Source: an uncultured delta proteobacterium
GTDB lineage: Bacteria > Desulfobacterota > Binatia > UBA9968
Direction of reading: 5' to 3'
Length of the DNA stretch: 64,000 nt
Assembly (NCBI GenBank): GCA_963728565.1
Contig: CAVSLC010000005.1
Span: forward strand, 192,001-256,000
The notes below the pieces were generated by a model that worked only from the letters and a program-made list of their open reading frames with translations, did not search any database and had not been told where the DNA came from. Below, one piece after another: positions 2,531 to 32,564 of the stretch. Position 1 is the first letter of the stretch; every line of letters starts with the position of its first letter. The translations under genes and the position numbers were made by a program.

Positions 2531-2533
2531 CTG

Positions 2534-11713: not shown

Positions 11714-12826
11714 ATGAAAGCTATAGCCGTTACGCCGAGAAAAAGAACCGTCGAAATTATCAATCAAGCCGAACCGCAGATTTTTTCCCCCACGGATGTC
11801 AAGCTGCGCATGCTGGAGGCCGGAGTCTGTGGCACGGACAGAGAAATCTGCGCCTTCGAATACGGGACCCCGCCTGCCGGTTCCGAGCAGCTGGTGATCG
11901 GCCACGAATCTATCGGCGAGGTGATAGAAACAGGTCCGAAAGTCACCCGCGTCAAAGCAGGAGACCTCGTCGTCCCAATGGTCCGCCGGCCGTGCCCGCA
12001 CGACCATTGCGCGGCCTGCCGCGCCGATCGTCAGGATTTTTGCTTCACCGGAGAATTTCAAGAACGGGGTATTAAAGAAAGGCACGGGTTCATGGCGCAG
12101 TTCGTTGTTGACGACGAAAAGTACATGAATCCCGTTCCGAGGGAAATGCGTGACGTTGCCGTTTTGGTAGAGCCGCTGACGATTGCTGAAAAGGGGCTGA
12201 CTCAAGTATGGCAAATGCAACAGCGCCTGCCTTGGGGCTGCCCGGTCACAACGGCAAAAGCAGCGGCTCATTGCCACCGGGCTGTTGTCCTGGGCGCGGG
12301 ACCGGTGGGATTGCTTGGGGCTATGGCCTTGATCAACTACGATTTTGAAACGTATGTTTATTCGCGAGAGCCCGCTCCGAATCCGAAGTCTCAACTACTC
12401 GAATCGATCGGCGCGCACTATATTTCGTCTGACAACATCGCTCCCGAAATGTTTCCCGAACAGATCGGCAACGTAGATTTAATCTACGAAGCGACGGGAG
12501 CTTCGAGCCTGGCCTTCGAAACGATGAAGTACCTCGGCACCAACGGCATCTTTATTTTTACAGGGGTGCCCGGCAGAAAACGCCCCATTCAAGTCGATAC
12601 CGACCTCATCATGCGCAATCTGGTTCTGAAAAACCAGGTCGTCTTCGGCACGGTCAATGCCGGGCGCGACTCCTTCGAAAACTCGATCCGCGATCTCGGC
12701 ACTTTCACCAAGCGTTGGCCCGAGGCGGTGCAGTCGCTGATCACCGGGCGCTTCCCAATGGAGGCTTACGGCGATCTTCTTCTCGGCCGCTCCGGAGGGA
12801 TCAAGAATGTCATCCGACTCAATTGA
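11714..12826 (+). CDS. Zn-dependent glucose 1-dehydrogenase (MDR family, archaeal-type)
   Basis: GVCGTDREI, GHE, VRRPC...CAACR...DFC, GAGPVG, VFGTVNA. Confidence 0.88.
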   Translation: MKAIAVTPRKRTVEIINQAEPQIFSPTDVKLRMLEAGVCGTDREICAFEYGTPPAGSEQLVIGHESIGEVIETGPKVTRVKAGDLVVPMVRRPCPHDHCAACRADRQDFCFTGEFQERGIKERHGFMAQFVVDDEKYMNPVPREMRDVAVLVEPLTIAEKGLTQVWQMQQRLPWGCPVTTAKAAAHCHRAVVLGAGPVGLLGAMALINYDFETYVYSREPAPNPKSQLLESIGAHYISSDNIAPEMFPEQIGNVDLIYEATGASSLAFETMKYLGTNGIFIFTGVPGRKRPIQVDTDLIMRNLVLKNQVVFGTVNAGRDSFENSIRDLGTFTKRWPEAVQSLITGRFPMEAYGDLLLGRSGGIKNVIRLN

Positions 12827-12947
12827 TCCGACGGATGGTTGTTAGAAGCATGTAGCGGGAACTTCGAAGAGCAGAGTGAGTTCGATATGCACCGTTTCGG
12901 ATGATCCCGACCTGGAACGCTGTGACCTTGAAGTCTACTGAGAGCAC

Positions 12948-13733
12948 ATGACGGACGCCTTGAAACGCCATTGGCCCGAATATCTGATGGAGGCTGCTTG
13001 CCTCGGCCTGTTTATGATCTCGGCCTTCACCTTCGGCGCGATTTTGGAATATCCTGGGTCGGCCGTTCATCAGGCTATTCCCTCCTCACTGCTGCGGCGA
13101 TTCTTGATGGGCATCGCGATGGGATTGACTGCTATCCTCATCATATATTCACCGTGGGGCAAACAATCCGGCGCCCATATCAACCCGTCGACTACCCTGA
13201 CGTTTTTTCGACTCGGCAAGGTCGCCAAATGGGATGCGATCTTCTACATCGTCGCGCAGTTCGGAGGCGGCATAACCGGGGCTCTTCTGGCTTCGGCCGT
13301 TCTGGCTGCATGGGTCTCCCATCCCTCGGTGAATTACGTTGTGACAATGCCGGGGAGCGCCGGCATCGCCGCCGCATTCGTCGCCGAAGTAGCGATTACT
13401 TTCATCCTGATGAGCGTAATTCTCCGTGTTTCAAACAATACCCGACTGCATAAACTCACCGGCTTGTGCGCGGGAGCGTTGGTCGCCGCCTACATAACCC
13501 TCGAAGCGCCGATCTCGGGAATGAGCATGAACCCCGCGCGTACCTTCGCTTCCGCAGTGCCGGCGCAGTATTGGACGTCGCTATGGCTTTACTTCACTGC
13601 TCCTTTGATCGGTATGCTGGCCGCCGCCGAGGTCCACCTACGAAGCCGGAGTCCCCGTGTCGGTTGCGCCAAACTGCACCACGAAAATCCGAAGCGCTGT
13701 ATATTTTGCGGCAAACCCGCCTCTAAAGCATAG
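12948..13733 (+). CDS. MIP/aquaporin with NPS/NPA motifs and Cys/His C-tail
   Basis: SGAHINPS, SMNPAR, six hydrophobic segments, tail CAKLHH...RCIFC. Confidence 0.92.
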   Translation: MTDALKRHWPEYLMEAACLGLFMISAFTFGAILEYPGSAVHQAIPSSLLRRFLMGIAMGLTAILIIYSPWGKQSGAHINPSTTLTFFRLGKVAKWDAIFYIVAQFGGGITGALLASAVLAAWVSHPSVNYVVTMPGSAGIAAAFVAEVAITFILMSVILRVSNNTRLHKLTGLCAGALVAAYITLEAPISGMSMNPARTFASAVPAQYWTSLWLYFTAPLIGMLAAAEVHLRSRSPRVGCAKLHHENPKRCIFCGKPASKA

Positions 13734-13866
13734 CGCTTGATAGCGCCGCGGCGCGGCATCGTTTTCGTTCACGCCGGGCATTCAAGATTAGCCGGGACGA
13801 ACGCTCGCCTGCCCGGAAAGACGGCGTGAAAGTTCAGTTGTGATTTAACCGCAGCGCCGCTCGGAT

Positions 13867-13895
13867 GCACCTTTTCTCGCGCGAAGCGCATCTAA
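13867..13895 (+). promoter_or_regulatory. Putative ECF promoter copy 3
   Basis: GCACCT-N16-CATCTAA upstream of 13935. Confidence 0.75.
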
Positions 13896-13934
13896 GCAGC
13901 ACGTAAAAAGATCCAGATAACCGGAGGGAAATCG

Positions 13935-14432
13935 ATGAAGCTCATTACGGCTGCCCTCGTAACAGTGACGCTACTGGCACTCTCTTCGGCCGGAGCGGAG
14001 CAGACCATTGAGAAAAAAGGGCTGACTCTGGACGGCGCGAAAAAAGTGATTGCGGCCGCGGTCGCCGCGGCTAAGAGCAAGAACGCGCCGGGCGGCGCCA
14101 TCGCCGTGGTCGACGAAGGAGGCAACCTCATCGCCGTCGAGCGGCTCGACAATACTTTTGCCGCCGGCGCCAACATCTCGATCGGCAAGGCGCGAACTGC
14201 AGTCCTGTTCAAGCGGCCGACGAAGTTCTTCGAAGATGTGATCAACAAAGGGCGCACCGCGATGACTAGTCTTAGTGATTTCACGCCGCTGCAGGGCGGC
14301 ATTCCGATCAGCGTCGATGGACAAATCATCGGCGCGGTAGGTGTTAGCGGCGCGGCCAGCGCCCAGCAAGACGAGGAACTCGCCATCGCTGGAGCCGACG
14401 CTTTGGCGACGAGCTCGGCGAAAATGCAATAG
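13935..14432 (+). CDS. Secreted GlcG/HbpS-family heme-binding protein
   Basis: IAVVDEGG, GKARTA, GGIPI...IGAVGVSG; signal peptide. Confidence 0.88.
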   Translation: MKLITAALVTVTLLALSSAGAEQTIEKKGLTLDGAKKVIAAAVAAAKSKNAPGGAIAVVDEGGNLIAVERLDNTFAAGANISIGKARTAVLFKRPTKFFEDVINKGRTAMTSLSDFTPLQGGIPISVDGQIIGAVGVSGAASAQQDEELAIAGADALATSSAKMQ

Positions 14433-14453
14433 ACCGCCAATTCAGGAGACGTC

Positions 14454-15314
14454 ATGAAATTCTTCAAGATTCTTATTGCACTGTCGTTTTTTTTCCTGCC
14501 GGCAACCGGAGCTCAGGCTCAACTGCAAGAGAAAAAAGTTCTAACTCTAGAGGCAGCCGAGAAAGTCGCCGCCGCCGCCGAGGCGGAAGCAAAAAAGAGA
14601 AATGCCACCGTCGTCATTGTCGTGGTGGACGACGGCGGGTATCCGATCGTCCTCAAGCGGCTCAATGACACTCAAGTCGCAAGTGTCGATGTAGGCATCG
14701 GCAAAGCGCGCACCGCGGCCATCTTCCGCCGGCCCAGTAAGGACTTTGAAGATCAGATCACGCAGGGTCGCACAGCGTCGCTCGTTCTTCCCGGGGCCAC
14801 CCCGCTGCAAGGAGGCCTTCCCCTCGTGTTTGATGGCAAGGTCGTTGGCGCGATTGGCGTCAGCGGCAACACGCCGCAGGAGGACGAAGACATAGCCAAC
14901 GCTGGCGCCGCCAGCTTCGAAGCGTCTAATAGAGCCGCCGCCGTATCGATAACCCACCTGCCGGCGAAGCAAGTAAGCCAGGCATTTGTTAAAGGAATGC
15001 CGCTGGTCAGGGGAAAGAATTACAAAGTTGACGCCAGCCACCGCAATGAACCGGGAATCGTGGAAGTTCACACGCGCGATACGGATATTATCTACATGCT
15101 CCAAGGCTCGGCGACTTTGGTAACCGGCGGAACTCTCGTTGATCCGAAAAATATCGAACCTGAAGAGATTCGCGGCCGGGAATCTAAAGAGGGAGAAACT
15201 CGTATGATTACCAAGGGCGACATCGTCGTCATCCCAAACGGCACACCGCACTGGTTCAAGGAAGTCAAAGACCCGATCGATTATTACGTCGTCAAGGTCA
15301 GAGCAGCTGACTAA
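14454..15314 (+). CDS. Secreted GlcG/HbpS-cupin fusion protein
   Basis: GlcG motifs followed by cupin EVH...GDIVVIPNGTPHWF. Confidence 0.85.
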   Translation: MKFFKILIALSFFFLPATGAQAQLQEKKVLTLEAAEKVAAAAEAEAKKRNATVVIVVVDDGGYPIVLKRLNDTQVASVDVGIGKARTAAIFRRPSKDFEDQITQGRTASLVLPGATPLQGGLPLVFDGKVVGAIGVSGNTPQEDEDIANAGAASFEASNRAAAVSITHLPAKQVSQAFVKGMPLVRGKNYKVDASHRNEPGIVEVHTRDTDIIYMLQGSATLVTGGTLVDPKNIEPEEIRGRESKEGETRMITKGDIVVIPNGTPHWFKEVKDPIDYYVVKVRAAD

Positions 15315-15328
15315 TTGAGGATACAAAC

Positions 15329-16988
15329 ATGACAAGGATCTTTCTGATAACCAGTATCGCCGCCCTTTTAGCTCTGCCCACCAAATTTGCCGCCGGAGCG
15401 GCGCCGGACGAATCGCTCGTCGGACGGAAGCCGGAAGCGACGATCGACCTTGCCACTCGACAAGGCGTGGAAACGGTGAAAGCCCAATGGCGCTACAGCG
15501 ACACAGAGATTGTCGAAGTCGATTTCAGATCCGCGGGACCTGACGGACAACCGAGCGGGACGCCAAATAAAGCCTACGACTTCACGCCGCATGCGGGCGG
15601 GGCCGACTTCGACGACTCCAACTGGGAAGTCATAGATTCCACGACTTTGGATCAACGCCGATCCGCTGGCAGACTCGGCTTCAACTGGTACAGGATCAAG
15701 ATCACCGTCCCGCAGCGAATCGGCAGTTTCGATCCAGCCGGCTCGACACTGGTCTTCGCCACGTCCGTCGACGACTATGCCGAAGTCTGGGTGGATGGAG
15801 AGTTGCCGCGCGCTGCCGGTCAGAGCGGCGGGTCAGTCGTCAAAGGCTGGAACGCAGAGAACCGGTTGATCGTCGGCCGTGACGTGAAGGCCGGCCAAAA
15901 GATCCAGCTCGCGATCTTCGGCATCAACGGTCCAATCTCCAATTCACCGACCAACTATATCTATGTGCGCTATGCGAAGCTCGAATTTCACAAAATTCCG
16001 GGCGGGCCTGTTGCGGTGATGCCACAAGAGGTCAACGTGGAAATAACGCCGGCTCGATCCGGCAATCGACGCTATCGTTCCACCCAACCCCAAAATTTTT
16101 AAGCTCGCCGAAGGCTTTCAATTCACCGAAGGACCCGTTTGGTTGCAAAACGGCGATTTTCTCTTCAGCGATCCGAACGCTAATAAAATCTACAAGTATG
16201 CGGCCGACGGAACGCTCTCGGTGTTCAAAGAGAACAGCGGTTACTCCGGCAAAGACATCACTGAATATTTCCAACCGGGCTCCAATGGGCTGACGCTCGA
16301 CCCGGATGGGAGACTGACGATCAATGAGCATGGTAACAGGCGGATCGTGCGGGTGGAAAAAGATGGAAAGCTAACGGTCCTCGCCGATCGCTTCGAAGGC
16401 AAGCGACTCAACAGTCCCAATGATCTCGTCTATCGCTCGGACGGAACGCTCTTCTTTAGCGATCCGCCTTTCGGCTTGCCGAAATTTTACGACGACGCGG
16501 CCAAGGAACTTCCCTACAGCGGCGTGTTCGCCCTCTATAAAGGCCAACTCAAGCTGGTGACAAGCGATCTGAAAGGGCCCAATGGAATCGCCTTTTCACC
16601 GGATGAAAAGTATCTCTATGTCGGCAACTGGGATCCGGAAAAAAAGATCGTAATGCGTTACGAAGTCAATCCCGACGCAACGCTGTCCAATGGAAAAGTC
16701 TTCTTCGACATGACCAGCTCGCCGGGACAAGACGCGATCGACGGCATCAAGGTCGATCAGCAAGGGAACCTCTACGTCTCCGGGCCCGGCGGGTTGTGGA
16801 TTCTTTCGCCGGCGGGCAAACACCTCGGGACAATTAAGGCACCGAAGCATCCGCACAACCTTGCGTGGGGTGGGGAAGACGGAAAAACCCTGTACTTGAC
16901 GGCACAGAGCACGCTTTACCGGATGCCGCTCAATATTCCCGGCATCCGTCCGGCGGATGTAATGAACAAACTCGCCGCGCAGCGTTAG
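15329..16988 (+). CDS. Secreted SMP-30/gluconolactonase with N-terminal beta-sandwich domain (frameshift near 16045)
   Basis: ORFs 15329..16102 and 16143..16988 join via RLDPAIDAIVP...FQFTEGPVW; GSNGL, NSPND, PNGIAFSPD, DGIKVD. Confidence 0.85.
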
Positions 16989-17141
16989 GTGAAAGAAATA
17001 GAAACGCCCAAAGAAACGGGAAGAATGGCAATCGCGACCTTAAATTCACTGGGCTCAGAGCAGAATATGCACCGGATCAAATGCGACTCGTTGCGAGTCC
17101 GAAGACGGCAGAAAATACAATTAGGAGAAAAGGGACAATTT

Positions 17142-17715
17142 ATGAGAGAGAGCACACCCTTAAACATCCCCGTCATATTGGGAACCACGCGCAAGGGCCG
17201 CATGAGTGAGCACGCCGCCCGCTTCATGGCGGGGCAGATCGAAAAGCGCAACGGGGTCAGAACCGAACTGATCGATATTTCCAAGCTTCCAATGCCCATC
17301 GATGATGCCGGGGAGGACATCAAAGATCCGGCGTTTTCAGAAAAGATGACGATGGCTGATGCGCTGGTGATCGTGACTCCGGAATACAATCACAGCTTTC
17401 CCGGACTTGCTCAAGCATGTTCTGGACAGCTGCCTGAAAGAATACATCCACAAGGCTGCCGGGATCGTCGGCGTGTCGGCCGGTCCTTTTGGCGGCGTAC
17501 GGGCAATCCAAGACTTTCTGCCGGTGATTCGTGAGCTGGGCCTGGTGAATATTTTCTGGGACGTCAATTTCGGCAACGTAAGCAAGGTCTTCGACGAATC
17601 CGGCAAGCTGCTCGACGAAGCCTTTGTTGCGCGCGCCGACAAGTTTTTGAACGAATTGGTTTGGATGGCGAAAACCTTGCGCTACGGGCGCGACAATATT
17701 GCTCTGGATAGCTGA
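17142..17715 (+). CDS. NADPH-dependent FMN reductase (frameshift near 17405)
   Basis: ILGTTRKGRMS...VTPEYNHSFPG + LKHVLD...SAGPFGGVRA. Confidence 0.85.
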
Positions 17716-17727
17716 CGGGAGGACGAC

Positions 17728-17916
17728 ATGGCGAAACAAAAGAGTGTGATGATTTGTTCGAATTGTGGCAGCGAGATGAATCATCACGCGGATAAGTTAA
17801 TCGATCCGGTGAAGCCGGAAGATCTGCGGCAGGTAAATTCCCAGCTCGGCGGCGTCATCGAAGAAATACACTGCTGTCCCGGATGCGGCGCCGCGGCTTC
17901 GCTTAGGGCAGAATGA
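17728..17916 (+). CDS. Small zinc-ribbon protein
   Basis: CSNCG...MNHHA...HCCPGCG; ggagg RBS. Confidence 0.7.
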   Translation: MAKQKSVMICSNCGSEMNHHADKLIDPVKPEDLRQVNSQLGGVIEEIHCCPGCGAAASLRAE

Positions 17917-17932
17917 GGGAGGGTGAGATTCC

Positions 17933-18616
17933 ATGAGCTTCGATACGACGAGCTTTGAAATCGGTAAAAACCGAATTGAGGCGCTCAGCGATGGCATATT
18001 TGCCATCGTCATGACCCTTCTTATCCTCGAGTTTCACGTCCCAAATCTGCCGTCCAACGCGCCCAATGTCGAGGTTGCGCCGGCGCTGGTTGCTTTGTTG
18101 CCCAAGTTCGCAAGCTACATCGTCACCTTTGTCAGCCTGGGATTCTTCTGGGTCGGTCATCATATCATGTACCATGCCATCCGGCGCGCCGACCGGACGC
18201 TTCTCTGGCTCAACATCTTCTTTTTCATGTTCGTTTCCATGCTCCCGTTCTCGACCAGCGTGCTGAATGCCTTTTCAGAAGCTTTCATCGCGCCGCTCTT
18301 CTTCGGAACCAACCTCGCGATTATCGGTTGGATGTTGTTCTTTCAATGGCGCTATGCAAGCTCGCAACCGGAGATGCTGGCTGCTTTTGTCAGTGCCGAA
18401 TACCGCAATTCGGTACGATCCCGCATGTTGATAGTCCCGGTGGCGACAACGCTGACCGTGTTCATCTGTTTTTGGAGCGTGGGGATTAGCCTGGCGATCT
18501 ATCTCTTGCTTCTTCCTCTGTACATGCTTCCCGGAAAATTAACGGGGCGGCTAAAACTGCTCAAGATTTCAGGCCCGCTTCGTAGAGCGGATTGTTCCTG
18601 CTCAGGAGGAAACTAG
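17933..18616 (+). CDS. TMEM175-family (DUF1211) potassium channel
   Basis: RIEALSDGIFAIVMTLL, FWVGHH, WLN...LPFST. Confidence 0.9.
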   Translation: MSFDTTSFEIGKNRIEALSDGIFAIVMTLLILEFHVPNLPSNAPNVEVAPALVALLPKFASYIVTFVSLGFFWVGHHIMYHAIRRADRTLLWLNIFFFMFVSMLPFSTSVLNAFSEAFIAPLFFGTNLAIIGWMLFFQWRYASSQPEMLAAFVSAEYRNSVRSRMLIVPVATTLTVFICFWSVGISLAIYLLLLPLYMLPGKLTGRLKLLKISGPLRRADCSCSGGN

Positions 18617-18665
18617 TTCCGGCGCTTTCGGGTGAGAGTTCAAAATCATTCTACGGAGGATAGCG

Positions 18666-19691
18666 ATGCGGAATCTTCGATTTTTCCTTGGAGTTTTAAC
18701 GATTGTTCTTTCGATCGCAGCATCCTCCGGGCATCTCTACAGTGAACAAGACAGTCTCCATATCATCGATGTCGTGCGCCTTGATTCTCGTTTCGACAAG
18801 CTCGTGCCGTCGAATCTGAAGATCGAGAAGATCGCCGGCGGCCACAAATGGGTGGAAGGACCGGTGTGGAACCGCCAAGAAGGCTACCTGCTCTTCTCGG
18901 ACATACCAAACAATTCGATCTATAGATGGCAGGAAGACAGAGGCGAAAGTCTGTTTCTAAAACCCAGCGGTTATACCGGCAAAGCTCCATTCGGAGGAGC
19001 CGAGCCGGGCTCGAACGGGCTGGCGTTCGATCCCGCGGGACGGTTGGCACTGGCGCAACACGGTAACCGCCGCATCGCCCGCCTCGAGAGAAGCGGCCGC
19101 ATGACCACGCTGGTGGATCGTTACGAGGGAAAGCGTATCAACAGCCCGAATGATCTGGTCTTCAAGTCAAACGGTGACCTTTATTTTACCGATCCGCCAT
19201 TTGGCTTACCGAAATCCTTCGACGATCCGCACAAAGAACTGCCGTTCCAGGGCGTCTACAGATTCTCCAAAGATGGCAAACTGACGCTCCTGACCAAAAA
19301 CATCAAAGCGCCGAACGGCATCGCGTTCTCGCCGGACGAGAAAAAGCTCTATGTCAGCAATGCCGACGCCAGTAATGCCATCTGGATGGTCTATGACGTG
19401 AAACCGGATGGCACCATCGCGAATGGAAAAACTTTGTTCAATGCTACGGCATGGACGAACAATAAACCTGGCGTGCCGGACGGCATCAAGATCGACAAAG
19501 ACGGCAACCTGTTTGCCGCCGGGCCAGGGGGTATTCATGTCATCGCGCCTGACGGCACTCATCTCGGCAGCATAGAGACAGGCGTACCGACGGGCAATCT
19601 GGCGTGGGGCGAGGATGGATCAACTCTTTTCATCACCTCGAACAAAACCGTTTATCGCTTGAAGCTCGGGACCAAAGGCGTTGGATTCTAG
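18666..19691 (+). CDS. Secreted SMP-30/gluconolactonase
   Basis: EGPVW, GSNGL, NSPND, PNGIAFSPD, PDGIKID; signal peptide. Confidence 0.92.
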   Translation: MRNLRFFLGVLTIVLSIAASSGHLYSEQDSLHIIDVVRLDSRFDKLVPSNLKIEKIAGGHKWVEGPVWNRQEGYLLFSDIPNNSIYRWQEDRGESLFLKPSGYTGKAPFGGAEPGSNGLAFDPAGRLALAQHGNRRIARLERSGRMTTLVDRYEGKRINSPNDLVFKSNGDLYFTDPPFGLPKSFDDPHKELPFQGVYRFSKDGKLTLLTKNIKAPNGIAFSPDEKKLYVSNADASNAIWMVYDVKPDGTIANGKTLFNATAWTNNKPGVPDGIKIDKDGNLFAAGPGGIHVIAPDGTHLGSIETGVPTGNLAWGEDGSTLFITSNKTVYRLKLGTKGVGF

Positions 19692-19731
19692 CCGGCATCC
19701 TTGGCGCCGCCAGATCTCGTGCAATCCAGAC

Positions 19732-19760
19732 GCATCCTTTGCCACAGTGCCGGCATCTAA
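19732..19760 (+). promoter_or_regulatory. Putative ECF promoter copy 4
   Basis: GCATCC-N16-CATCTAA upstream of 19829. Confidence 0.78.
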
Positions 19761-19828
19761 TCCTGTACGCACCATTTCGAATGATTCAGCGCGAGTATGC
19801 AAAACAAAAACTCACAAGGAGGAAAATC

Positions 19829-20567: not shown

Positions 20568-20696
20568 GACGATCGATTATCATGCGAAATGTTTAATTCC
20601 GTCGGCGCGCCTCGGCGCGCCGGCGGATAAAAGCTTCATACGGTTTGCAAGTCGTGCTACGAACCACGGCACCACAGCGCCGATGGGACTCACGCT

Positions 20697-20777: not shown

Positions 20778-20790
20778 GCTGCAAGTCGGT

Positions 20791-20991: not shown

Positions 20992-20994
20992 AGT

Positions 20995-23767: not shown

Positions 23768-23842
23768 AGGACCGCTATTCCTTGTCGGCTGCTTTCCCTG
23801 CGGGGGAAGCAGCCGGTTTGAGAAAGTACGAAAGGATTCGAG

Positions 23843-25156
23843 ATGGCCAGGGGCAGAAAACAGATTGTGATCCTCGGCGGCGGCTTCGGCGGTCTCTACA
23901 CCGCCCGAGAACTGGAAAAAAAGCTCGGCGCGGATCCGGATGTCGAGATAACGCTGGTGAACCGCGACAATTTCTTTCTCTTTACTCCGATGTTGCATGA
24001 AGTAGCCGCCAGCGACCTCGACCCTGCCGACATCCTGAATCCGATCCGCAAGCTTTTGAAGCAATCTCGTTTCTTCGTCGGCAATGTCGAGGCGATCGAC
24101 CTCGACTCCAAGAAAGTCAAAGTCTCTCATGGAGAGGGCCAACATCCGCATGAGCTGGCGTACGATCAACTGGTGATCGCGCTGGGCTCGGTCAGCAATT
24201 TCTTCACTCTCCCTGGAGTTGAAGAGCGCGCGCTGCCCATGAAGTCACTCAATGATGCAGTGACCTTGCGCAGCCGGCTTATCGAGCAGTTGGACGAAGC
24301 CGATTTTGAATGTTGTCCGGCGATGCGAGCTTCGTTGATGACCATCGTTGTAGCCGGCGGCGGTTTTGCCGGCGTTGAGACGGTTGCGGCAGTAAATGAT
24401 TTTTTACGCGAAGCCTTGAAGTATTACCCGAACCTCAGCGAAGAAATGATTCGCGTCGTGCTGGTTGAACACGGGCCTGCGGTCTTGCCGGAGCTCGACG
24501 GCAGCTTGGGTGCATATGCGGCGGAGAAGCTTTCCCGGCGCGGAGTTGAGATACGGCTTCAAACCGCCGTGACTTCCATGTCGGAGCGCGCTGTAACCCT
24601 GAGCGACGGCACGTCTATCCACACCCGGACTCTCGTCTGGACGGCGGGCACTGCGCCGAATCCTTTGCTGGCGGCGCTTGCCTGCTCAAAGGAGAAGGGC
24701 AAGTTGATCGTCGACGAGAATCTTGAAATTCCCGGCCGGCCGGGCGTCTGGGCGCTGGGCGACTGCGCCGCGATTCGCGATCGCCAGTCCGGCAGGCTTT
24801 ATCCGCCGACAGCGCAGCACGCCTTGCGCCAGGGAAAAGTTGTCGCACACAATGTCATCGCCGCGATTCGTGGGACGGCAAAACAACCCTTCGTTTTCTC
24901 CACCATCGGCCAACTCGCTGCCATCGGCAGGCGAACCGGTGTCGCCAACATCTTGGGTGTCAACTTCTCCGGCTTCATCGCCTGGTGGATGTGGCGAACC
25001 ATTTACCTGAGCAAGCTGCCGCGCCTTGAGAAGAAAGTGCGAGTGGCGCTGGGCTGGTCACTCGATCTGTTTTTTTCGAAGGATCTCGTACAGCTCAAAA
25101 CCAACGACGCGACGGTTTGCCGCGGCGCTGCGGTTAAACAACAATCCGCTGCCTGA
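23843..25156 (+). CDS. Type II NADH dehydrogenase-like flavoprotein
   Basis: GGGFGG, FTPMLHEVA, GGGFAGVE, WALGDCA, PTAQHA. Confidence 0.9.
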   Translation: MARGRKQIVILGGGFGGLYTARELEKKLGADPDVEITLVNRDNFFLFTPMLHEVAASDLDPADILNPIRKLLKQSRFFVGNVEAIDLDSKKVKVSHGEGQHPHELAYDQLVIALGSVSNFFTLPGVEERALPMKSLNDAVTLRSRLIEQLDEADFECCPAMRASLMTIVVAGGGFAGVETVAAVNDFLREALKYYPNLSEEMIRVVLVEHGPAVLPELDGSLGAYAAEKLSRRGVEIRLQTAVTSMSERAVTLSDGTSIHTRTLVWTAGTAPNPLLAALACSKEKGKLIVDENLEIPGRPGVWALGDCAAIRDRQSGRLYPPTAQHALRQGKVVAHNVIAAIRGTAKQPFVFSTIGQLAAIGRRTGVANILGVNFSGFIAWWMWRTIYLSKLPRLEKKVRVALGWSLDLFFSKDLVQLKTNDATVCRGAAVKQQSAA

Positions 25157-25171
25157 GAAAGGAATAAGAAT

Positions 25172-26743
25172 ATGCCCAGCCAAGACCATTACGATGTTGT
25201 CATTATCGGCACCGGCGCAGGCGGCGGCACGCTGGCGCATAAACTCGCGCCCAGCGGCAAGCGCATTCTGCTCCTGGAACGGGGCGGGTATGTGCCGCGC
25301 GAGAAAGACAACTGGAATCCGCGCGCCGTCAACCTCGAAGGAAAATATCAGACCAAAGAGATGTGGCATGACAAAGACGGCCACGAACTTCATCCGCACA
25401 CCAACTATTACGTCGGCGGCAACACCAAATTCTACGGCGCGGCGCTGTTCCGCCTGCGCAAAGAAGATTTTGGTGAAATCCGCCATCACGGCGGCCTCTC
25501 TCCGGCATGGCCCATTGTTTACGATGACATGGAGCCCTACTACACCGAGGCGGAACAGCTTTATCACGTACACGGCAACCGCGGCGAAGATCCGGCCGAG
25601 CCGCCTGCGAGTGCGCCTTATCCGCATCCGGCGGTCAGCCATGAATCGCGCATTCAACAATTATCCGATGATTTCGCGCAGCTCGGCCTGCGCCCGTTTC
25701 ACACGCCACTTGGCGTGATGCTCGACGAAAAGGATTCGCATGCGAGCCGCTGCATTCGCTGCAATAGCTGTGACGGATTTCCTTGCCTGGTTGGTGCCAA
25801 ATCCGACGCGCAGATTTGCGCCGTCGATCCGGCGCTCCAACATGCCAACGTGACTCTCAGAACCGACGCTTACGTCGAACGGCTCCAAACCAGCCCGTCG
25901 GGCCGCGAGATCAGCAAGGTAATGATCAAGAGCAACGGCGTTCGCGAGGAAATTTCGGCAGATATCGTGGTCTCGTCTTGCGGCGCGATCAACTCGGCGG
26001 CTTTGCTGCTCCGTTCCGCCAATGAGCGGCATCCGAACGGGCTAGCCAATGGTTCCGACGTCGTCGGCCGCCATTACATGGGGCACGTCAACTCGGTCCT
26101 GATGGCTCTATCGAAATGTCCCAACCCGACGATTTTTCAAAAATCGCTTTCGGTGAATGATTTCTATTTCGGCACGGCCGGCTGGAATTACCCGATGGGC
26201 CATATTTCGTTTGTCGGCAAGCTCGATGGCGAGACTCTGAAGGGGGGCGCGCCGGCGCTCACGCCCGGCTGGACTCTTGACATGATGGCGCGCCATTCGC
26301 TCGACTTTTGGCTCACGTCGGAGGATCTGCCCGATCCGGACAATCGGGTCACCGTCGATTCCTCCGGCGGTATTGTTCTCAGTTATAAACCTAACAACGA
26401 AGAAGGTCACAAGCGGCTCATCGTCAAGCTGAAGGAACTCATGCAACAGCAGACCGCGTGCAAGATCCATGGCCGCGAATGCCATCAGGGACTGTTCGGC
26501 CGCAACCTCTACGTCGGTCAGCGCATTCCCCTGGCAGGTGTGGCGCATCAGGTAGGAACGGTTCGCTTCGGCAACGATCCAAGAACCAGCGCGCTGGACG
26601 CCAATTGCAAAGCGCACGATGTCGATAATCTTTATGTCGTCGACGGCAGCTTTTTCTGCTCGAGCGGCGCGGTGAATCCGGCTCTCACCATCATGGCCAA
26701 TGCCCTGAGAGTGGGGGAGCATCTGATTGAAAGGATGAAGTAG
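25172..26743 (+). CDS. GMC-family oxidoreductase
   Basis: GTGAGG, VGGNTKFYG, C-x2-C-x2-C, HQVGT, NPALT. Confidence 0.92.
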   Translation: MPSQDHYDVVIIGTGAGGGTLAHKLAPSGKRILLLERGGYVPREKDNWNPRAVNLEGKYQTKEMWHDKDGHELHPHTNYYVGGNTKFYGAALFRLRKEDFGEIRHHGGLSPAWPIVYDDMEPYYTEAEQLYHVHGNRGEDPAEPPASAPYPHPAVSHESRIQQLSDDFAQLGLRPFHTPLGVMLDEKDSHASRCIRCNSCDGFPCLVGAKSDAQICAVDPALQHANVTLRTDAYVERLQTSPSGREISKVMIKSNGVREEISADIVVSSCGAINSAALLLRSANERHPNGLANGSDVVGRHYMGHVNSVLMALSKCPNPTIFQKSLSVNDFYFGTAGWNYPMGHISFVGKLDGETLKGGAPALTPGWTLDMMARHSLDFWLTSEDLPDPDNRVTVDSSGGIVLSYKPNNEEGHKRLIVKLKELMQQQTACKIHGRECHQGLFGRNLYVGQRIPLAGVAHQVGTVRFGNDPRTSALDANCKAHDVDNLYVVDGSFFCSSGAVNPALTIMANALRVGEHLIERMK

Positions 26744-26754
26744 GACACAGCAAA

Positions 26755-27795
26755 ATGGAAAAACTGCTGCGGCGAAAGAAAACATGCGATCGAGCGCTCG
26801 TGTTCATGGCCTTCTTGGTGCTCGGGCTTTACGGATCTTTGGCGCCGGCATCGGCGCAGCTCGTCAAGTCGGTCGACGCGGCGGGAATCACCGTCTCCGA
26901 CATTGACCGGTCGGTAGAATTTTTTTCCAAAGTGCTCTCGTTTGAAAAAGTCTCGGACGTCGAAGTCGCAGGCAGCGAGTACGAGCGGCTTCAGGGAGTT
27001 TTCGGCGCACGGATGAGGATTGCGCGCATGAGGCTCGGCGAAGAATTCATCGATCTCACCGAATATCTCACACCCAGAGGCCGGCCGATCCCGGTGGACT
27101 CGCGCAGCAACGATCAATGGTTCCAGCACATCGCAATCGTCGTAAGCGACATGGACAAAGCCTATCAACAGTTGCGCGCGCATAAAGTGCGGCATACCTC
27201 TACCGGTCCGCAGCGGATTCCCGACTGGAACAAGGCCGCGGCCGGAATCAAGGCTTTTTACTTCAAGGATCCCGACGGTCACAATCTCGAGTTGATTTAC
27301 TTTCCATCCGGCAAAGGCAATCCAAAATGGCAGCAAGCAAACGGGCGTCTTTTTATGGGTATCGACCATACCGCAATTGCAGTCTCGGATACGGCCCGGA
27401 GCTTAGATTTTTACCGCGATGTTCTGGGTCTGAAGCTTGCCGGTGAAAGCGAAAACTACGGCACCGAGCAGGAGCATCTAAACCACGTCTTCGGATCACG
27501 GGTGCGTATCAGCGGACTCAAAGCGCCGTCCGGTTTCGGCATCGAGTTCCTCGACTACTTGACGCCGCGCGATGGCCGGCCGATGCCGCCCGACACGCGC
27601 GCCAATGACCTCTGGCATTGGCAGACAGCAATAAGGGTGGGCCGCGCCGACGCGGCCGCCGACAAGTTAAAAAGCGCGCGGGTGCGCTTTGTCTCCCCCG
27701 GCGTGACGACACTCCCGGACCGAGCCCTGGGCATCGCCAAAGGATTTATCGTGCGTGATCCTGATGGCCACGGGCTTCAGTTGATCGAGAGATAA
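26755..27795 (+). CDS. Secreted tandem VOC/glyoxalase-domain protein
   Basis: Repeated VOC motifs (QHIAIVV, DPDGHNLEL, DHTAIAV, DPDGHGLQL); signal peptide. Confidence 0.85.
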   Translation: MEKLLRRKKTCDRALVFMAFLVLGLYGSLAPASAQLVKSVDAAGITVSDIDRSVEFFSKVLSFEKVSDVEVAGSEYERLQGVFGARMRIARMRLGEEFIDLTEYLTPRGRPIPVDSRSNDQWFQHIAIVVSDMDKAYQQLRAHKVRHTSTGPQRIPDWNKAAAGIKAFYFKDPDGHNLELIYFPSGKGNPKWQQANGRLFMGIDHTAIAVSDTARSLDFYRDVLGLKLAGESENYGTEQEHLNHVFGSRVRISGLKAPSGFGIEFLDYLTPRDGRPMPPDTRANDLWHWQTAIRVGRADAAADKLKSARVRFVSPGVTTLPDRALGIAKGFIVRDPDGHGLQLIER

Positions 27796-27810
27796 TCCGG
27801 CAGAGAGTTT

Positions 27811-29809
27811 ATGATGAACGATCTGGTCAAGATGAAAGACGACGAATGGCTCGAAACCGACGGGCTTGGCGGCTTCGCCTCCGGCACTGTGGCCGGCATC
27901 AGAACGCGGCGCTACCACGCGCTTCTCCTCACCGCAACCAACCCGCCCTCGGGCCGAGTCGTTCTCATCAACGGCTTCGATGCCTCGGTGGAAACGGCAG
28001 GCGGATGTTTTTCACTCTCCTCCCAGTTATATAACCCGGACGTGGTGCACCCGGACGGCGCCGCAAGAATAGAGCAATTCAAAGCCGATCCCTGGCCGCG
28101 GTGGATCTACCGGTTGGAAGACGGGAGCAAGATTCAGTTTGAGATTTTCGCCTGCAACGGCGCTTCCGTGACGGTGCTCGTGTGGCGTCTGCTTGCGGCA
28201 ACGAAGAAAGCCATTCTTTCATTGCGGCTTTTTTTCTCCGGACGGGACTATCATTCCATGCATCGCGAGAACGGCGCTTTTCACTTTGAGCCTCAGCTAC
28301 AGGGAAAACGCCTCATCTGGCATCCCTACTCGGGCCTGCCGGGAATCATCGCTCTTGCCAACGGCGAATATCACCACCAGCCCGCCTGGTACCGTAATTT
28401 TCTCTACGAACAGGAACGTGCACGCGGGCTCGATTTTATCGAGGATCTCGCCGCGCCTGGATTGTTCCGTTACGATCTCGCGCGCGCACAGGCGGTCTGC
28501 ATCCTTGCTGCCGAGGGATTTGAAAATGAGTTGCTGGTGCCGGACGATTCCGCGGAAGAACTGGCGGCGGATCTGCGTGGGTCAGAGCTTCGCCGCCGGC
28601 AAAAATTTTCTTTACCTCTGGAACGCTCCGCGGACGCTTACCTGGTCAAGCGCGGCGGCGGCAAAACAATTGTCGCGGGCTACCCTTGGTTCACCGATTG
28701 GGGCCGCGATACGTTCATAGCGCTTCGTGGCTTGTGCCTTGCCAACCAGCGATTCGATGAGGCCCGCGATATTCTTTTTGAATGGGCCGGCGTGGTCTCC
28801 GAAGGGATGCTGCCAAATCGATTCCCCGATCGGAGCGATCAACCTGAGTACAACTCAGTCGACGCCTCTCTCTGGTACATCATCGCAGTCCACGATTTTC
28901 TCGACGCGATGAAGACGCGCGGCGCCAACGTCTCCGATTCGGATAGAAACGCGCTGCGCCAAGCGGTCGAAGCTATCCTTGCCGGCTACTCGCAGGGCAC
29001 GCGCTTTGGAATTCACATGGATCAGGATGGTCTTCTCGCCGCCGGTGTCCCCGGTGTGCAGCTTACCTGGATGGACTCGAAGATCGGCGACTGGGTAGTC
29101 ACGCCACGAATTGGAAAACCCGTCGAGATCCAGGCGCTGTGGTTAAACGCCCTGTGGATCGGCAGCCAATTCTCGGAGAGCTGGAAGGAATTCTTTATCC
29201 GGGGTCAAAAAAGTTTCTCTACCCGCTTCTGGAACGAACGGGGCGGTTATCTCTACGACGTCATCGACGTCGATCATCAACCCGGCAAAGTCGATGCGCT
29301 GTTCCGGCCGAACCAGATTTTCGCCATCGGCGGGCTGCCGATTTCGCTCATCACAGGAGAACGCGCCGAAACAATTCTTGAGGCCGTGATTCAACGGCTA
29401 TGGACTCCGCTCGGTCTTCGATCTCTCGCCCCCGGAGAGCCCGGCTACGCGTCGCGGTACGAAGGCGGCGTGCGAGATGCGCGACAGCGTTTACCATCAA
29501 GGCACGGTATGGCCCTGGCTCCTCGGTCCGTTTGTCGAGGCCTGGGTGCGCGTTCATGGCGAGAGCGACGACGCTAAGCGCGAAGCTCGAACGCGCTTCC
29601 TGGTGCCGATAATGGAGCACCTAAACAGCGCGGGCCTCGATCATGTCTCCGAAATCACCGACGCCGATGCGCCGCACATACCGCGCGGGTGCCCATTTCA
29701 AGCTTGGTCTGTGGCGGAGCTGATTCGCCTGGACCGGCTGGTTCTGAGACTCGCTGAAAAACAAGAAATCTCCGCATCCTCTCGGGCTCGAGCGGCATCT
29801 AACAGGTAG
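27811..29809 (+). CDS. Amylo-alpha-1,6-glucosidase (glycogen debranching; frameshift near 29477)
   Basis: [34 protein letters not shown] + [10 protein letters not shown]...GCPFQAWS. Confidence 0.9.
29774..29802 (+). promoter_or_regulatory. Putative ECF promoter copy 6
   Basis: GCATCC-N16-CATCTAA in the 3' end of the debranching gene, upstream of 29913. Confidence 0.75.
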
Positions 29810-29912
29810 GCATCGCTGCGGCAGGACGATCCGGTACTTCGATTCTTCATACAGAAGCGAGACGATCAACCGGTTTTCATCTACCGGTAATTACCGCGTT
29901 AGGAGAAGCATC

Positions 29913-32564
29913 GTGACCAAAGAAGAGCTTAGACTAGAGGAAGATCGAGAGCGCAAGGCGAACTGGAAGCGCTGGGGCCCTTATCTGTCGGAGCGTCAGT
30001 GGGGCACCGTGCGCGAGGATTACAGTCCGTACGGAACGGCATGGGATTCGTTCTCTCACGATCAGGCGCGTAGCCGCGCCTACCGCTGGGGCGAAGACGG
30101 CCTGGCAGGGATTTCAGATAAGCACCAGTTCATTTGCTTCGCCTTGGCTCTCTGGAACGGTCGCGACCCGATCCTCAAAGAACGCCTGTTCGGCCTGACC
30201 GGTAGCGAGGGCAACCATGGCGAGGATGTGAAAGAGTACTATTTTTACCTGGACTCGACACCGACGCACTCTTACATGAAATACCTGTACAAGTACCCGC
30301 AGAGCGAATTTCCCTATGCGCAGCTGGTGGAGGAAAATCGCCGGCGGGGGAAACGCGATCTCGAATTCGAGCTCATTCATACGGGAATTTTTGACCAGGA
30401 CCGGTACTTCGATATTTTCGTCGAATACGCAAAGGGGTCGCCGGACGACGTTCTAATTCGAATCGAAGCAATCAATCGCGGACCCGAAGCCGCCGAACTT
30501 CATCTGCTGCCGACGGTGTGGTTTCGCAATACCTGGTCTTGGAGCGCCGAGCCGCAGCGGCCCCGGCTAATGCGGGGTGAGCCGGCCGAAGGCGTCATTC
30601 CCATAGAGCTGCATCACTCCTATTACAATAAACGATGGTTTTACTGCGAAGGGAATCCGGAGACGCTCTTCACCGAGAACGAGACCAACCATCGCCGTCT
30701 GTTCGGCGCGGATAACGCTTCATCCTACTCCAAGGATGGCATCAACGATTACATCGTGAGTGGCGCAAAAGACGCGGTGAATGCGGCCGGCGTGGGAACG
30801 AAAGCGGCCGGCCACTATCGGCTCGATATCGGGCCGGGAAAAAGCGCCGTCGTCAAGCTCCGATTGACGGACAATGAAATGGTCTCCTCCGCGAGTCGGC
30901 CTTTCGACGCGCGCTTCGATCTCACTGTCGCGGAGCGAAGAAAAGAAGCCGATGAGTTCTATGCCAGCGTCTCCCCGCCGAGTCTTTCGGCGGATTCACG
31001 AAGGGTGATGCGTCAGGCTCTCGCCGGCATGCTCTGGTCGAAGCAGTTTTATCATTACGTGGTCAAGCAATGGTTGGACGGCGACCCCGGCAACCCTCCG
31101 CCGCCGTCAGAGCGGGTCAACGGCCGCAATCATGAATGGCCCCATCTGTACAATGCCGACGTGATTTCGATGCCCGACAAGTGGGAATACCCGTGGTATG
31201 CAGCCTGGGACCTGGCGTTTCATTGCATTCCTCTTGCATTGGTGGATGCAGACTTCGCCAAGGAGCAACTCTGTTTGATGCTGCGCGAGTGGTACATGCA
31301 CCCCAACGGGCAGATTCCCGCGTACGAGTGGGCCTTTGGCGACGTTAATCCGCCGGTTCACGCCTGGGCGGCATGGCGGGTCTACAAGGTCGAGAAGAAG
31401 CGCCGAGGCAAAGGCGACCGCGAGTTTCTCCAGCGCGTTTTTCACAAATTGCTGCTGAACTTTACCTGGTGGGTGAACCGCAAGGACGCAAACGGTATGA
31501 ACATCTTCCAGGGAGGATTTTTAGGCTTGGATAACATCGGCGTATTCGATCGCAGCGCGCCGCTGCCCACCGGCGGCTACATCGAACAGTCCGACGGCAC
31601 GAGTTGGATGGCGATGTACACTTTGAATCTTCTGGCCATTGCGCTCGAGCTATCCAAGGAAGACCGTGCCTACGAAGACGTGGCAAGCAAATTCTGGGAG
31701 CACTTCATTCACATTGCGCATGCGATGAGCCATCGCGGTCAGAACGGCACGGGACTATGGAACGACGAAGACGGCTTTTTCTATGACGTGCTCAGGCTGC
31801 CGGATGGCAGTCACTTTCCGATGAAGATTCGTTCCATGGTCGGGCTGATTCCGTTGTTCGCCGTGGAAACTTTGGAGCCGGAGCTGTTACAACGGTTGCC
31901 GGGCTTCAAGCGACGCCTGGAGTGGTTTATCGACAATCGGCCGGACCTCACCGGCAATGTCGCCTGCATGAGGACGCCGGGCATGGGTGAGCGACGCCTG
32001 CTTTCGATCGCATCCGAGGATCAGCTCCGTCAGATACTGAAGTATATGCTGGACGAACGCGAGTTCCTTTCGCCCTACGGAATCCGAGCGCTCTCCCAAT
32101 ATCATCGCGACCATCCTTACAATTTATCGGTGAACGGGACAAACCACCGGGTAGAATACGAGCCGGCGGAATCGAGCACCGGACTATTCGGCGGGAATTC
32201 TAACTGGCGCGGACCGATCTGGTTTCCGGTAAATTTTCTTTTAATCGAGTCGCTGCAGAAGTTTCACTATTATCTTGGAGACGATTTTAGGGTCGAATGC
32301 CCTACCGGCTCCGGCAAAATGATGACGCTCTGGGAAGTTGCCGGCGATATTTCGCAGCGACTCATGCGAATCTTGTTGCAGGATGCGGATCAGAAGAGAC
32401 CGGTTTTTGGCGGCACGGAAAAATTCCAGAACGATCCGCACTGGCGCGATCTGATCCCATTCCACGAATACTTCCACGGCGACAACGGCGCTGGAATCGG
32501 TGCGAGCCACCAAACTGGTTGGACCGGCCTGATAGCGAAATTAATCCAACAATACTCCGCGTAA
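29913..32564 (+). CDS. GH63/MGH1-like glucosidase
   Basis: [54 protein letters not shown]. Confidence 0.92.

Follow-up and report, generated by a model that had tools for sequence, protein, structure and literature searches.

SigR-RsrA of Streptomyces coelicolor and SigH-RshA of Mycobacterium tuberculosis are pairs of an extracytoplasmic function (ECF) sigma factor and a zinc anti-sigma factor that control thiol-oxidative stress regulons. The locus described here, at positions 7004-32564 of a 64-kb stretch of DNA from an uncultured delta proteobacterium (the window; contig C5:192001-256000 of genome G000), resembles them in its design. An ECF sigma gene is followed by the gene for a small soluble anti-sigma factor with the motif C-x25-H-x3-C-x2-C, one promoter type is repeated over a multi-operon regulon, and a copy of that promoter before the anti-sigma gene (P0 in the table) would provide feedback. 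In contrast to the SigR and SigH regulons, the promoter here is TGCATCTTTT...CATCTAA and not GGAAT-N18-GTT, the consensus of the SigR/SigH group (ECF12); GGAAT-type dyads occur only in the loci of other lineages. Also unlike those systems, no thioredoxin or thiol-synthesis gene here carries the motif, the sigma operon lies behind a sigma-54-type promoter with a PAS/GAF activator and includes genes for a mini-STAS protein and a 78-aa protein, and the targets encode glucan-degrading, sugar-oxidizing and exported proteins.

We conclude that the locus, of about twenty genes, is very probably a conserved, co-regulated ECF regulon. Full-text literature searching returned nothing on this gene set. 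The accessible portion of the ECF re-classification paper (PMC7826278) describes no ECF group with this gene context; GMC proteins come up there, in the supplement, for ECF125 and ECF207 alone, two systems distinct from this one. The assembly of the source genome, G000, consists of 28 contigs (C numbers) and is 80.6% complete; G004-G017 are the genomes of relatives, and L numbers are loci.

All of the gene families that an earlier note, made from the letters of this DNA, had named were confirmed by Pfam at their places on the plus strand. They include a glucose dehydrogenase (GDH), a glycogen debranching enzyme (GDE), a type II NADH dehydrogenase (NDH-2), a GMC flavoprotein dehydrogenase, a GH63-like glycoside hydrolase, a MIP channel and a set of exported proteins. 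The list was correct as far as it went; it lacked the gene for a 62-aa zinc-ribbon protein and the whole regulatory module at 7004-11369. The note had also placed the genes on one strand. All named genes are indeed on the plus strand, but six minus-strand open reading frames (ORFs) at 20791-23017 (2.2 kb) interrupt the span, and the gene set is thus two blocks rather than one uninterrupted strand.

The proposal that a single promoter motif serves the set has held up. The motif was found by aligning upstream regions of G000 with those of relatives. In the form GCAYC-N18-ATCYAA, it occurs five times in the window, always on the plus strand and always upstream of cluster genes (P1 to P5), versus 0.15 expected, and none of 100 shuffles reached five. 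The consensus of the cluster promoter, TGCATCTTTT-N..-CATCTAA, has the layout of an ECF promoter. A start codon lies 39-110 nt past four of the five exact sites, and the spacing between P1 and the GDH gene is widened by a 234-nt insert. Because the pattern was partly derived from the cluster sites themselves, three further checks were made: a genome count, a comparison of orthologous places, and an independent matrix. The whole genome (4.53 Mb) has 12 exact matches; five are in the cluster, and the other seven fit the approximately 8.6 chance matches estimated. The motif is present at orthologous places in G004, G005, G006, G008 and G010. Lastly, a matrix was made from 15 instances that came only from other genera (G008 and G010) and three distant loci. 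Among about 9 million positions of the 4.5-Mb genome, it ranked the six cluster sites among the seven best (in order 13867, 19732, 23180, C11:97065, 29774, 11379 and 10675). Their scores range from 32.3 to 24.3, and the next-best position scores 19.9. The sole strong match outside the cluster (C11:96781-97065, minus strand) precedes a gene for a 74-aa exported protein.

The sites would define five transcription units: GDH and MIP from P1, GlcG1 to the second lactonase from P2, spondin from P3, DM13 to GDE from P4, and GH63 from P5. A terminator-like hairpin follows the MIP gene at 13745. No sigma-54 promoter was found directly before cluster genes within 11000-33000, and the 80 distant loci described below have three sigma-54 sites versus about 7.5 expected. 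Sigma-70-like promoters (9 versus 9.3 expected) and terminator-like sites (30 versus 24) were also counted. We infer that the ECF sigma factor encoded beside the targets reads the motif.

The regulatory genes suggest a second tier of control above that sigma factor. The sigma operon has the features of sigma-54-dependent operons, namely a predicted -24/-12 promoter and a nearby gene for an enhancer-binding protein, and TGGCAC/TGGCGC-type sites are found at the same place in G005, G006, G008 and G010. A palindrome in the divergent intergenic region may bind the sigma-54 activator. The first product of the operon is predicted to have a truncated STAS fold (73 aa versus about 115 aa in SpoIIAA, RsbV and RsbS). 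The top fold match of its model is SpoIIAA (1thn_B, TMq 0.75, E 8.6e-4), and RsbV and RsbS are also among the top matches (TMq 0.70-0.75). By eye, and against the SpoIIAA motif, there is no phosphorylatable Ser at the SpoIIAA-equivalent position, where the aligned segment reads FMN-E/D/N-E. Pfam detects no gene for a HATPase anti-sigma factor (a partner kinase) within the regulatory module.

The ECF sigma factor matches only the sigma70-ECF superfamily in NCBIfam (101.9 bits versus a cut-off of 42.9). The anti-sigma factor has no hydrophobic or membrane segment, and its C-x25-H-x3-C-x2-C layout, which is that of RsrA and RshA, places it by sequence among the RsrA-type zinc anti-sigma (ZAS) proteins. 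The ZAS motif also follows the sigma gene in G004, G005 and G008, and in G006 and G010, each of which has two paralogues. Regulators of these types recur near the distant loci. ECF hits are found in 28 of the 80 and sigma-54 activators in 17; 16 of 31 ECF hits are followed by an ORF with H-x3-C-x2-C, 15 of them with the upstream Cys as well. In two loci labeled Dadabacteria (L084 and L093), the cluster likewise adjoins an activator gene, a STAS-like gene and an ECF gene in this arrangement.

Eight sites with the promoter motif of G000 occur in six of the 80 distant loci (about 2.5 expected), and they stand before cluster genes only in the three nearest, L033-L035. Other lineages have their own repeated dyads before the same genes: GTAAGG-N14-15-CGAC.AA in loci labeled Verrucomicrobiota and Pyrinomonadaceae, GGAATAAA-N16-17-GATT/ATTC in Blastocatellia and others, and GTAAC-N..-GCATC.AA in others. 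These dyads are ECF-like, and the set thus has the behavior of an ECF regulon in a number of independent lineages.

The distant loci were found by scanning 185,579 species genomes with five aligned GMC orthologues. At least 591 confirmed stretches resulted, and the best 80 of these (69-88% identity) were analyzed. By the depositors' labels, they belong to 13 phylum-level groups: 44 are Acidobacteriota, 10 Gemmatimonadota and 9 Verrucomicrobiota, followed by Myxococcota, Actinomycetota, Planctomycetota, Methylomirabilota, Ignavibacteriota, Spirochaetota, Bacillota and others. All 80 are from metagenome bins, so that an individual label may be in error; contigs of 1-4.5 Mb carry several of the loci. 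Partners were counted by tblastn of the window proteins around the 80 GMC loci, and the 40 loci of at least 20 kb were treated as full.

The earlier note had made its proposal depend on the genes occurring together elsewhere, and for ten of its families or their counterparts they do. The most constant partner of GMC over the 80 loci is VOC (66 of 80 loci, 36 of 40 full loci), followed by MIP (57 and 33), GH63 (52 and 36), GDE (36 and 23), the GDH family (31 and 20), the long lactonase (25 and 13), NDH-2 (24 and 19), the GlcG-cupin fusion (24 and 14), DM13 (21 and 13) and FMN reductase (16 and 11). The GDH-like gene of the distant loci is about 35% identical and is also of the Glu_dehyd_C family. 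Spondin (11 and 5) and the zinc ribbon (10 and 6) were counted as well. Conserved membership did not extend to the stand-alone GlcG protein (3 of 80 and 1 of 40), the TMEM175 channel (2 and 0) or the second lactonase (2 and 0). There are 36 different gene orders among the 40 full loci. As a control, the same queries and threshold give only one to three places per family in the 4.5 Mb of G000, and the clustering is therefore not explained by chance. Families found in at least five of the 80 loci were taken as recurrent accessory neighbors. They include a VTT/DedA fusion (21 loci), SDR (13), TANGO2 (12), GNAT (11), DinB_2 (11), DoxX (10), a subtilase with CBM48 (8), nucleotidyl transferase (7), YHS (7) and MsrB (5).

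Among close relatives, a DNA comparison of 21 genomes, including G000 and G012, matched block 1 in 14 and block 2 in 12. The order sigma module-GDH-MIP-GlcG-GlcG/cupin-long lactonase is found in G004, G006 and G008, and G010 has the same genes on three short contigs; G005 has sigma module-GDH-MIP up to a contig end. The order DM13-NDH2-GMC-VOC-GDE-GH63 is found in G008 and in G010 (across two contigs), and likewise in G004 up to the contig end. G012 has GDH-MIP, and GMC-VOC-GH63 without GDE. In G013 and G017, which belong to another family of the same order, only MIP, GMC and VOC are together.

The module appears to have been acquired by, and to spread through, horizontal transfer among soil bacteria. 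Branches of the GMC tree mostly follow phylum labels, with Acidobacteriota in several groups; amid acidobacterial branches, G000 clusters with L033-L035 (support 99). Of 200 other genomes sampled from the GTDB phylum of G000, only 2 have a GMC match (E 1e-100), whereas block 2 was matched in 9 of 12 genomes of its family. The cluster also ends close to a tRNA-Phe gene (33419), the only Rfam match in the window. The tree placement, the contrast between phylum and family, and the tRNA gene at the locus end together suggest horizontal acquisition.

Close relatives of both blocks are present in soil RNA libraries. Assembled contigs from four runs (three studies, soil and rhizosphere) were placed on 11370-31369, with 341, 158, 111 and 219 contigs at 90-99% likeness that cover 28, 27, 25 and 27 of 30 bins, respectively, in both blocks. 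There is almost no cover in the bins at 20708-22708 (the minus-strand interruption) and 13371-14037, although an uncovered bin proves nothing. One contig skips NDH-2, as in G006, and ten RNA runs hold small shares of block 2.

Table. Features of the locus and of the insertions within it, by position in the window
Feature	Position	Strand	Basis and distribution
Sigma-54 enhancer-binding activator (PAS, two GAF, AAA+, Fis-type helix-turn-helix), divergent from sigma operon	7004-9394	-	Pfam; adjoins module in G005, G006, G008
Palindrome core, putative upstream activator site, in divergent intergenic region	9462-9480	.	Similar palindrome in G005, G006, G008, G010
Sigma-54-type -24/-12 promoter, TGGCAT-N5-GTGCT	9554-9569	+	9/11 consensus positions
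74-aa mini-STAS protein	9605-9828	+	No Pfam hit; model pLDDT 85; orthologues in G004, G006, G008, G010
ECF sigma factor, regions 2 and 4, N-terminal stretch of about 95 aa; start codon uncertain	9829-10647	+	Pfam Sigma70_r2, Sigma70_r4_2
P0, near-match, before 78-aa ORF and anti-sigma gene	10675-10703	+	Matrix score about 24.2-24.3, seventh best in genome
Conserved 78-aa ORF	10738-10974	+	Matches in G004, G005, G008, G010; no Pfam or NCBIfam hit
Soluble zinc anti-sigma factor (zf-HC2, RsrA-like)	10971-11369	+	Pfam; start probably ATG at 11049
P1, upstream of GDH and probably MIP	11379-11407	+	Orthologous sites in G004, G005, G008, G010
234-nt repeat element between P1 and GDH	11430-11663	.	Sequence comparison
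MDR zinc glucose 1-dehydrogenase (GDH), archaeal-type, cytoplasmic	11714-12826	+	Pfam Glu_dehyd_C, E 1.7e-46; PDB 2cd9, E 1.7e-52
MIP channel, NPS/NPA motifs	12948-13733	+	Pfam; nearest solved relatives NIP2-1, AqpM
P2, upstream of GlcG1 and seven following genes	13867-13895	+	Best genome score
Exported GlcG/HbpS-like protein (GlcG1)	13935-14432	+	Pfam; signal-like N-terminus
Exported GlcG/HbpS-like and cupin fusion	14454-15314	+	Pfam; 24/80 distant loci, mostly adjoining long lactonase
First (long) exported lactonase: signal peptide, GH2-N-like beta-sandwich, SGL propeller	15329-16988	+	Pfam, model
NAD(P)H-dependent FMN reductase	17145-17712	+	Pfam
62-aa zinc-ribbon protein	17728-17916	+	10/80 loci; adjoins FMN reductase wherever both found
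TMEM175-family channel, lineage-specific operon passenger	17933-18616	+	Pfam; in G006, G010; 2/80 distant loci
Second exported SGL lactonase	18666-19691	+	Pfam; PDB 3e5z, 3dr2; 2/80 distant loci
P3, upstream of spondin	19732-19760	+	Orthologous site in G006
Exported spondin-domain protein, start corrected from 19604	19826-20563	+	Pfam; NCBIfam NF038123 above cut-off
Cassette island outside regulon: BrnA/BrnT, DUF2442/DUF4160, SnoaL-like piece, integrase (tyrosine recombinase) fragment	20791-23017	-	Pfam
P4, upstream of DM13-NDH2-GMC-VOC-GDE	23180-23208	+	Orthologous sites in G004, G006, G010
DM13-domain protein, N-terminal membrane anchor	23261-23767	+	Pfam; anchor by eye
Type II NADH dehydrogenase (NDH-2)	23843-25156	+	Pfam Pyr_redox_2, NDH2_C
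Cytoplasmic GMC flavoprotein dehydrogenase	25172-26743	+	Pfam GMC_oxred_N, GMC_oxred_C
Exported two-domain VOC (glyoxalase-fold) protein	26755-27795	+	Pfam; weak PDB matches only
Archaeal-type glycogen debranching enzyme (GDE), GDE_N and GDE_C	27811-29809	+	Pfam
P5, inside GDE 3' end, upstream of GH63	29774-29802	+	Orthologous sites in G006, G008
883-aa GH63-like (MGH1-like) glycoside hydrolase, cytoplasmic	29913-32564	+	Pfam

The two dehydrogenases resemble described sugar dehydrogenases. GDH (ADH_N and Glu_dehyd_C domains) is nearest to the glucose dehydrogenases of Sulfolobus (2cd9) and Haloferax (2b5v, E 5e-48). It belongs to the same MDR subfamily as the Sulfolobus enzyme at the entry of the archaeal non-phosphorylative Entner-Doudoroff pathway, and the cluster likewise has SGL-family lactonases. 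However, the lactonases here are exported, and no gluconate dehydratase, 2-keto-3-deoxygluconate (KDG) kinase or KDG aldolase is found among the annotated cluster and accessory families. Over its full length, GMC can be aligned to catalytic subunits of FAD-glucose and fructose dehydrogenases (E about 1e-38), the nearest being those of Burkholderia cepacia (6a2u, E 4.7e-38) and Gluconobacter japonicus (7w2j, E 2.8e-34). It has the GMC fold, GxGxxG at residues 13-18, and four invariant cysteines (C194, C197, C200 and C205; C-x2-C-x2-C-x4-C) in a Cys-rich loop that matches the Fe-S site of FAD-glucose dehydrogenase. In FAD-glucose and fructose dehydrogenases this loop holds an Fe-S cluster. Unlike those complexes, GMC here has no signal peptide, and no Tat small subunit or cytochrome c subunit was found among the Pfam-annotated ORFs of 9600-32600 or the recurrent families of the 80 loci. 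GMC is thus taken to be a cytoplasmic enzyme.

GDE has both of its domains and scores 348.5 against TIGR01561 (cut-off 364), with its frame broken at 29478 in this assembly; in NCBIfam, no cluster enzyme reaches an equivalog cut-off, and the spondin domain alone passes. The GH63-like protein has an MGH1-like domain (Pfam MGH1-like_GH, E 7e-24) and a GH63 C-terminal domain (Glyco_hydro_63, E 1e-5), as in the GH63 hydrolases of glucosylglycerate and mannosylglycerate. In contrast to those enzymes, it has an extra N-terminal half of about 420 aa without a family match and no PDB sequence match at E 1e-3, and it is always paired with glucan or sugar-dehydrogenase genes, not with solute-synthesis genes. 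A second GH63-like gene (72% protein identity) lies outside the cluster at C10:209445-212074 (L032), and beside it a 51-nt stretch (C10:212522-212572) is 86% identical to the GMC 3' end, possibly the remains of another copy of the block. Because G000 carries glgA and glgB above curated cut-offs, a glycogen store is plausible. The enzymes are compatible with the release and oxidation of sugar for reductant, as the earlier note had proposed from the same genes.

Export had been claimed for both lactonases and VOC, and signal-like N-termini, judged by eye from translations, are present on these three, on both GlcG proteins and on the spondin protein. GDH, GMC, NDH-2, FMN reductase, GDE and GH63 have no such segment by the same inspection. 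At its N-terminus the first lactonase has an extra domain, of about 240 aa, that matches no Pfam family; the model of this domain (pLDDT 81, 20 sequences) resembles the sugar-binding beta-sandwich with which GH2 enzymes begin (Foldseek E 2e-5, TMq up to 0.52). For the second lactonase, the closest relatives are gluconolactonases of Deinococcus and Xanthomonas (3e5z, 3dr2). HbpS of Streptomyces reticuli is an extracellular haem-binding redox sensor. The two exported GlcG proteins are of the same HbpS-like/GlcG Pfam family, and their haem binding is putative; unlike HbpS, they have no SenS/SenR-type two-component genes alongside, and one copy is fused to a cupin.

The MIP channel is predicted to have a constriction of Met-Ile-Met-Arg, invariant in 52-53 of 53 orthologues; this mapping uses the spacing from the NPA motifs and an alignment with plant NIP2-1. 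The constriction of AqpZ-type water channels is Phe-His-Thr/Cys-Arg. The NPS and NPA motifs are present, but the predicted filter differs from that of AqpZ and is neither of the water nor of the glycerol type. A C-terminal tail, C-x(8-12)-C-x2-C, is present in 22 of the 53 orthologues.

What the regulon does is less certain than that it exists. The analysis establishes the gene identities, the common promoter, the regulator genes and their recurrence over phyla, whereas the trigger, the substrates and the direction of electron flow are inferences. We see about an even chance that it is an ECF/ZAS stress regulon under a two-tier switch, through which glucan is turned into reductant when the redox or energy state of the cytoplasm is disturbed. 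The sigma-54 activator, with its PAS/GAF sensor domains, would drive the operon for the mini-STAS protein, the ECF sigma factor, the 78-aa protein and the soluble zinc anti-sigma factor. Once freed from its anti-sigma factor, the ECF sigma factor would read six promoter copies, serving five target units and, as feedback, the anti-sigma gene. GDE and the GH63-like hydrolase would release sugar from stored alpha-glucan in the cytoplasm, NAD(P)-dependent GDH and the Fe-S GMC dehydrogenase would oxidize it, and NDH-2 and FMN reductase would hand electrons to quinones or flavins. The envelope arm would consist of the MIP channel and DM13 in the membrane, with two lactonases, two GlcG/HbpS-like proteins, VOC and spondin exported. 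The glucan reserve would thereby become NAD(P)H and quinol while the envelope is equipped. The redox and energy part of this proposal draws on an RsrA-like anti-sigma factor that is soluble, an activator with PAS/GAF domains, enzymes linked to NAD(P)H and quinones, and the presence of DinB, DoxX and MsrB as companions in other lineages. DinB_2, DoxX and MsrB have oxidative or thiol-stress functions.

Several observations weigh against this proposal. The promoter is not of the SigR/SigH type, and a matrix scan of the 80%-complete genome found no thioredoxin or other thiol gene with the motif. Some ZAS proteins sense other signals, and the ZAS motif is no proof of redox sensing. Some lineages do without the glucan branch: no GDE was found in 17 of the 40 full loci, and in G006 GDE is absent from between VOC and GH63, as is NDH-2 from the locus. 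VOC and GH63 have no close solved relatives. The contigs from RNA libraries may include DNA and are silent on expression level, growth condition, gene rank and transcript ends. Finally, both lactonases are exported and both dehydrogenases are cytoplasmic. Enzymes on opposite sides of the membrane do not fit a simple path from glucose through lactone to gluconate, unless lactone leaves the cell.

Exit of the lactone is the essence of a variant that we regard as a long shot, in which the locus is a transferable and self-contained emergency energy module. GDH and the Fe-S GMC enzyme would oxidize glucan sugar inside the cell, with electrons passing to the quinone pool via NDH-2 and GMC. The neutral lactone would exit through the methionine-lined MIP channel and be hydrolyzed outside the membrane by the exported lactonases, aided by GlcG-cupin and VOC, and the acid would add to the proton gradient without glycolysis. 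If true, this would explain why lactonases and dehydrogenases are separated, why MIP steadily adjoins a sugar dehydrogenase (GMC in most phyla, GDH in the family of G000), and why the genes travel together from one soil phylum to another. The adjacency of genes can also be read differently. MIP lies directly upstream of GMC in 37 of the 80 loci, VOC lies directly downstream in 54, and this trio is all that G013 and G017 share. With the invariant and unusual filter of MIP and the signal-like N-terminus of VOC, this suggests a core devoted to a single small neutral compound (such as a polyol, an aldehyde, H2O2 or a derivative of a quinone), for uptake and detoxification or for production and export, to which glucan and lactonase genes were recruited as add-ons. 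We consider such a core rather unlikely, since GH63 equals VOC in frequency in the full loci, the nearest solved relatives of GMC oxidize hexoses, MIP adjoins GDH and not GMC in the family of G000, and the sequences yield no candidate substrate.

The earlier note had favored a program of rehydration, osmotic shift or dormancy exit, in which glucosyl solutes or glycogen are hydrolyzed, the sugar is burned, water passes through the aquaporin and K+ through TMEM175. TMEM175 is present in only two of the 80 loci, and K+ management therefore falls outside the conserved set; management of water is unproven, given the predicted filter of MIP. In addition, the recurrent accessory families include no osmolyte transporter, no mechanosensitive channel and no family for K+ uptake, and the sensor parts, a soluble ZAS protein and a PAS/GAF activator, are cytoplasmic and point to a redox or metabolic signal rather than rehydration. 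On the other side, the MGH1-like domain is by its Pfam name that of the glucosylglycerate/mannosylglycerate hydrolase family, MIP is a core member of the full loci, and the carriers are overwhelmingly soil or rhizosphere metagenome-assembled genomes. We see no specific support for a rehydration or osmotic trigger, and its K+ and water components are weak; as an account of the locus it is quite improbable. It is nevertheless compatible with the stress regulon proposed above, as a redox signal could itself arise from rewetting. Scarcely credible, in our view, is that these are neighbors without joint function and that the motif is due to chance or derived from a repeat. Gene content does vary, with NDH-2, GDE and the second lactonase lost in G006, and there are mobile insertions inside the locus. 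Against this stand five motif copies where 0.15 are expected, a matrix that still picks out the cluster when made without the genus of G000, and families that co-occur in reshuffled order under 13 phylum labels while having only one to three places per genome.

Acidobacteriota, Gemmatimonadota and Verrucomicrobiota dominate soils, and their stress physiology is almost unknown. The locus offers a testable unit with a sigma/anti-sigma switch, a defined promoter and about a dozen conserved targets, among them the GMC enzyme with its 69-88% identity over 80 loci, a distinct MIP subfamily and an uncharacterized exported VOC protein. If the proposed stress regulon is correct, slow-growing soil bacteria would make reducing power from glycogen on demand, and a function could be assigned to several widespread "hypothetical" families. 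The locus is rare in the phylum of G000 but present in most of the family, and with this patchy spread it exemplifies a stress module that can be transferred.

Three genes of the cluster are split by one-base insertions: the first lactonase (near 16049), FMN reductase (near 17405) and GDE (an extra T at 29478). Each is a single frame in relatives (the lactonase in G004, G006 and G010, FMN reductase in G006 and G008, and GDE in G008, G010 and L034). The extra base is absent from the contigs of soil RNA libraries at 16049 (four of four runs) and at 17405 (three of four runs). Other genes in the window are split similarly: an amino-acid permease (52621-53834, with frame changes over 52621-54151), an NMT1-like binding protein (60304-61369) and pieces of a histidine kinase (32595-33100). 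We therefore consider the three +1 frameshifts to be probably indel errors of the assembly and not decay of the locus. The activator and sigma genes are split as well in G005, also a long-contig genome (L030).

The minus-strand interruption between the blocks looks like the remnant of an integron-type cassette array. A 50-nt direct repeat lies between cassettes, at 21362-21411 and 22037-22086 (80% alike), which may be attC-like. G006 has both blocks on one contig and different small minus-strand ORFs in the same gap (L018:2047-3286), which argues that the gap is an insertion hot spot outside the set. G006 also lacks most of the second lactonase. The 234-nt element between P1 and GDH has at least six full-length copies in G000 at 83-100% identity (on C5, C12, C13, C14, C23 and C25). 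It is missing from this site in G004 and G005 and is skipped by RNA-library contigs in two of the four runs. A partly similar insert lies upstream of GlcG1 in G004 (L021, around 4033-4081).

Just beyond the tRNA-Phe gene, at 34170-35996, a good sigma-54-type promoter (TGGCAT-N5-TTGCT, 10 of 11 consensus positions) stands 180 nt upstream of the gene for an exported DUF6298 protein. The flanks at 36990-39107 and 1005-5642 hold aromatic-ring genes (LigB/LigA dioxygenase, SDR, UbiD decarboxylase, bicupin and an enolase-superfamily enzyme) without the regulon motif.

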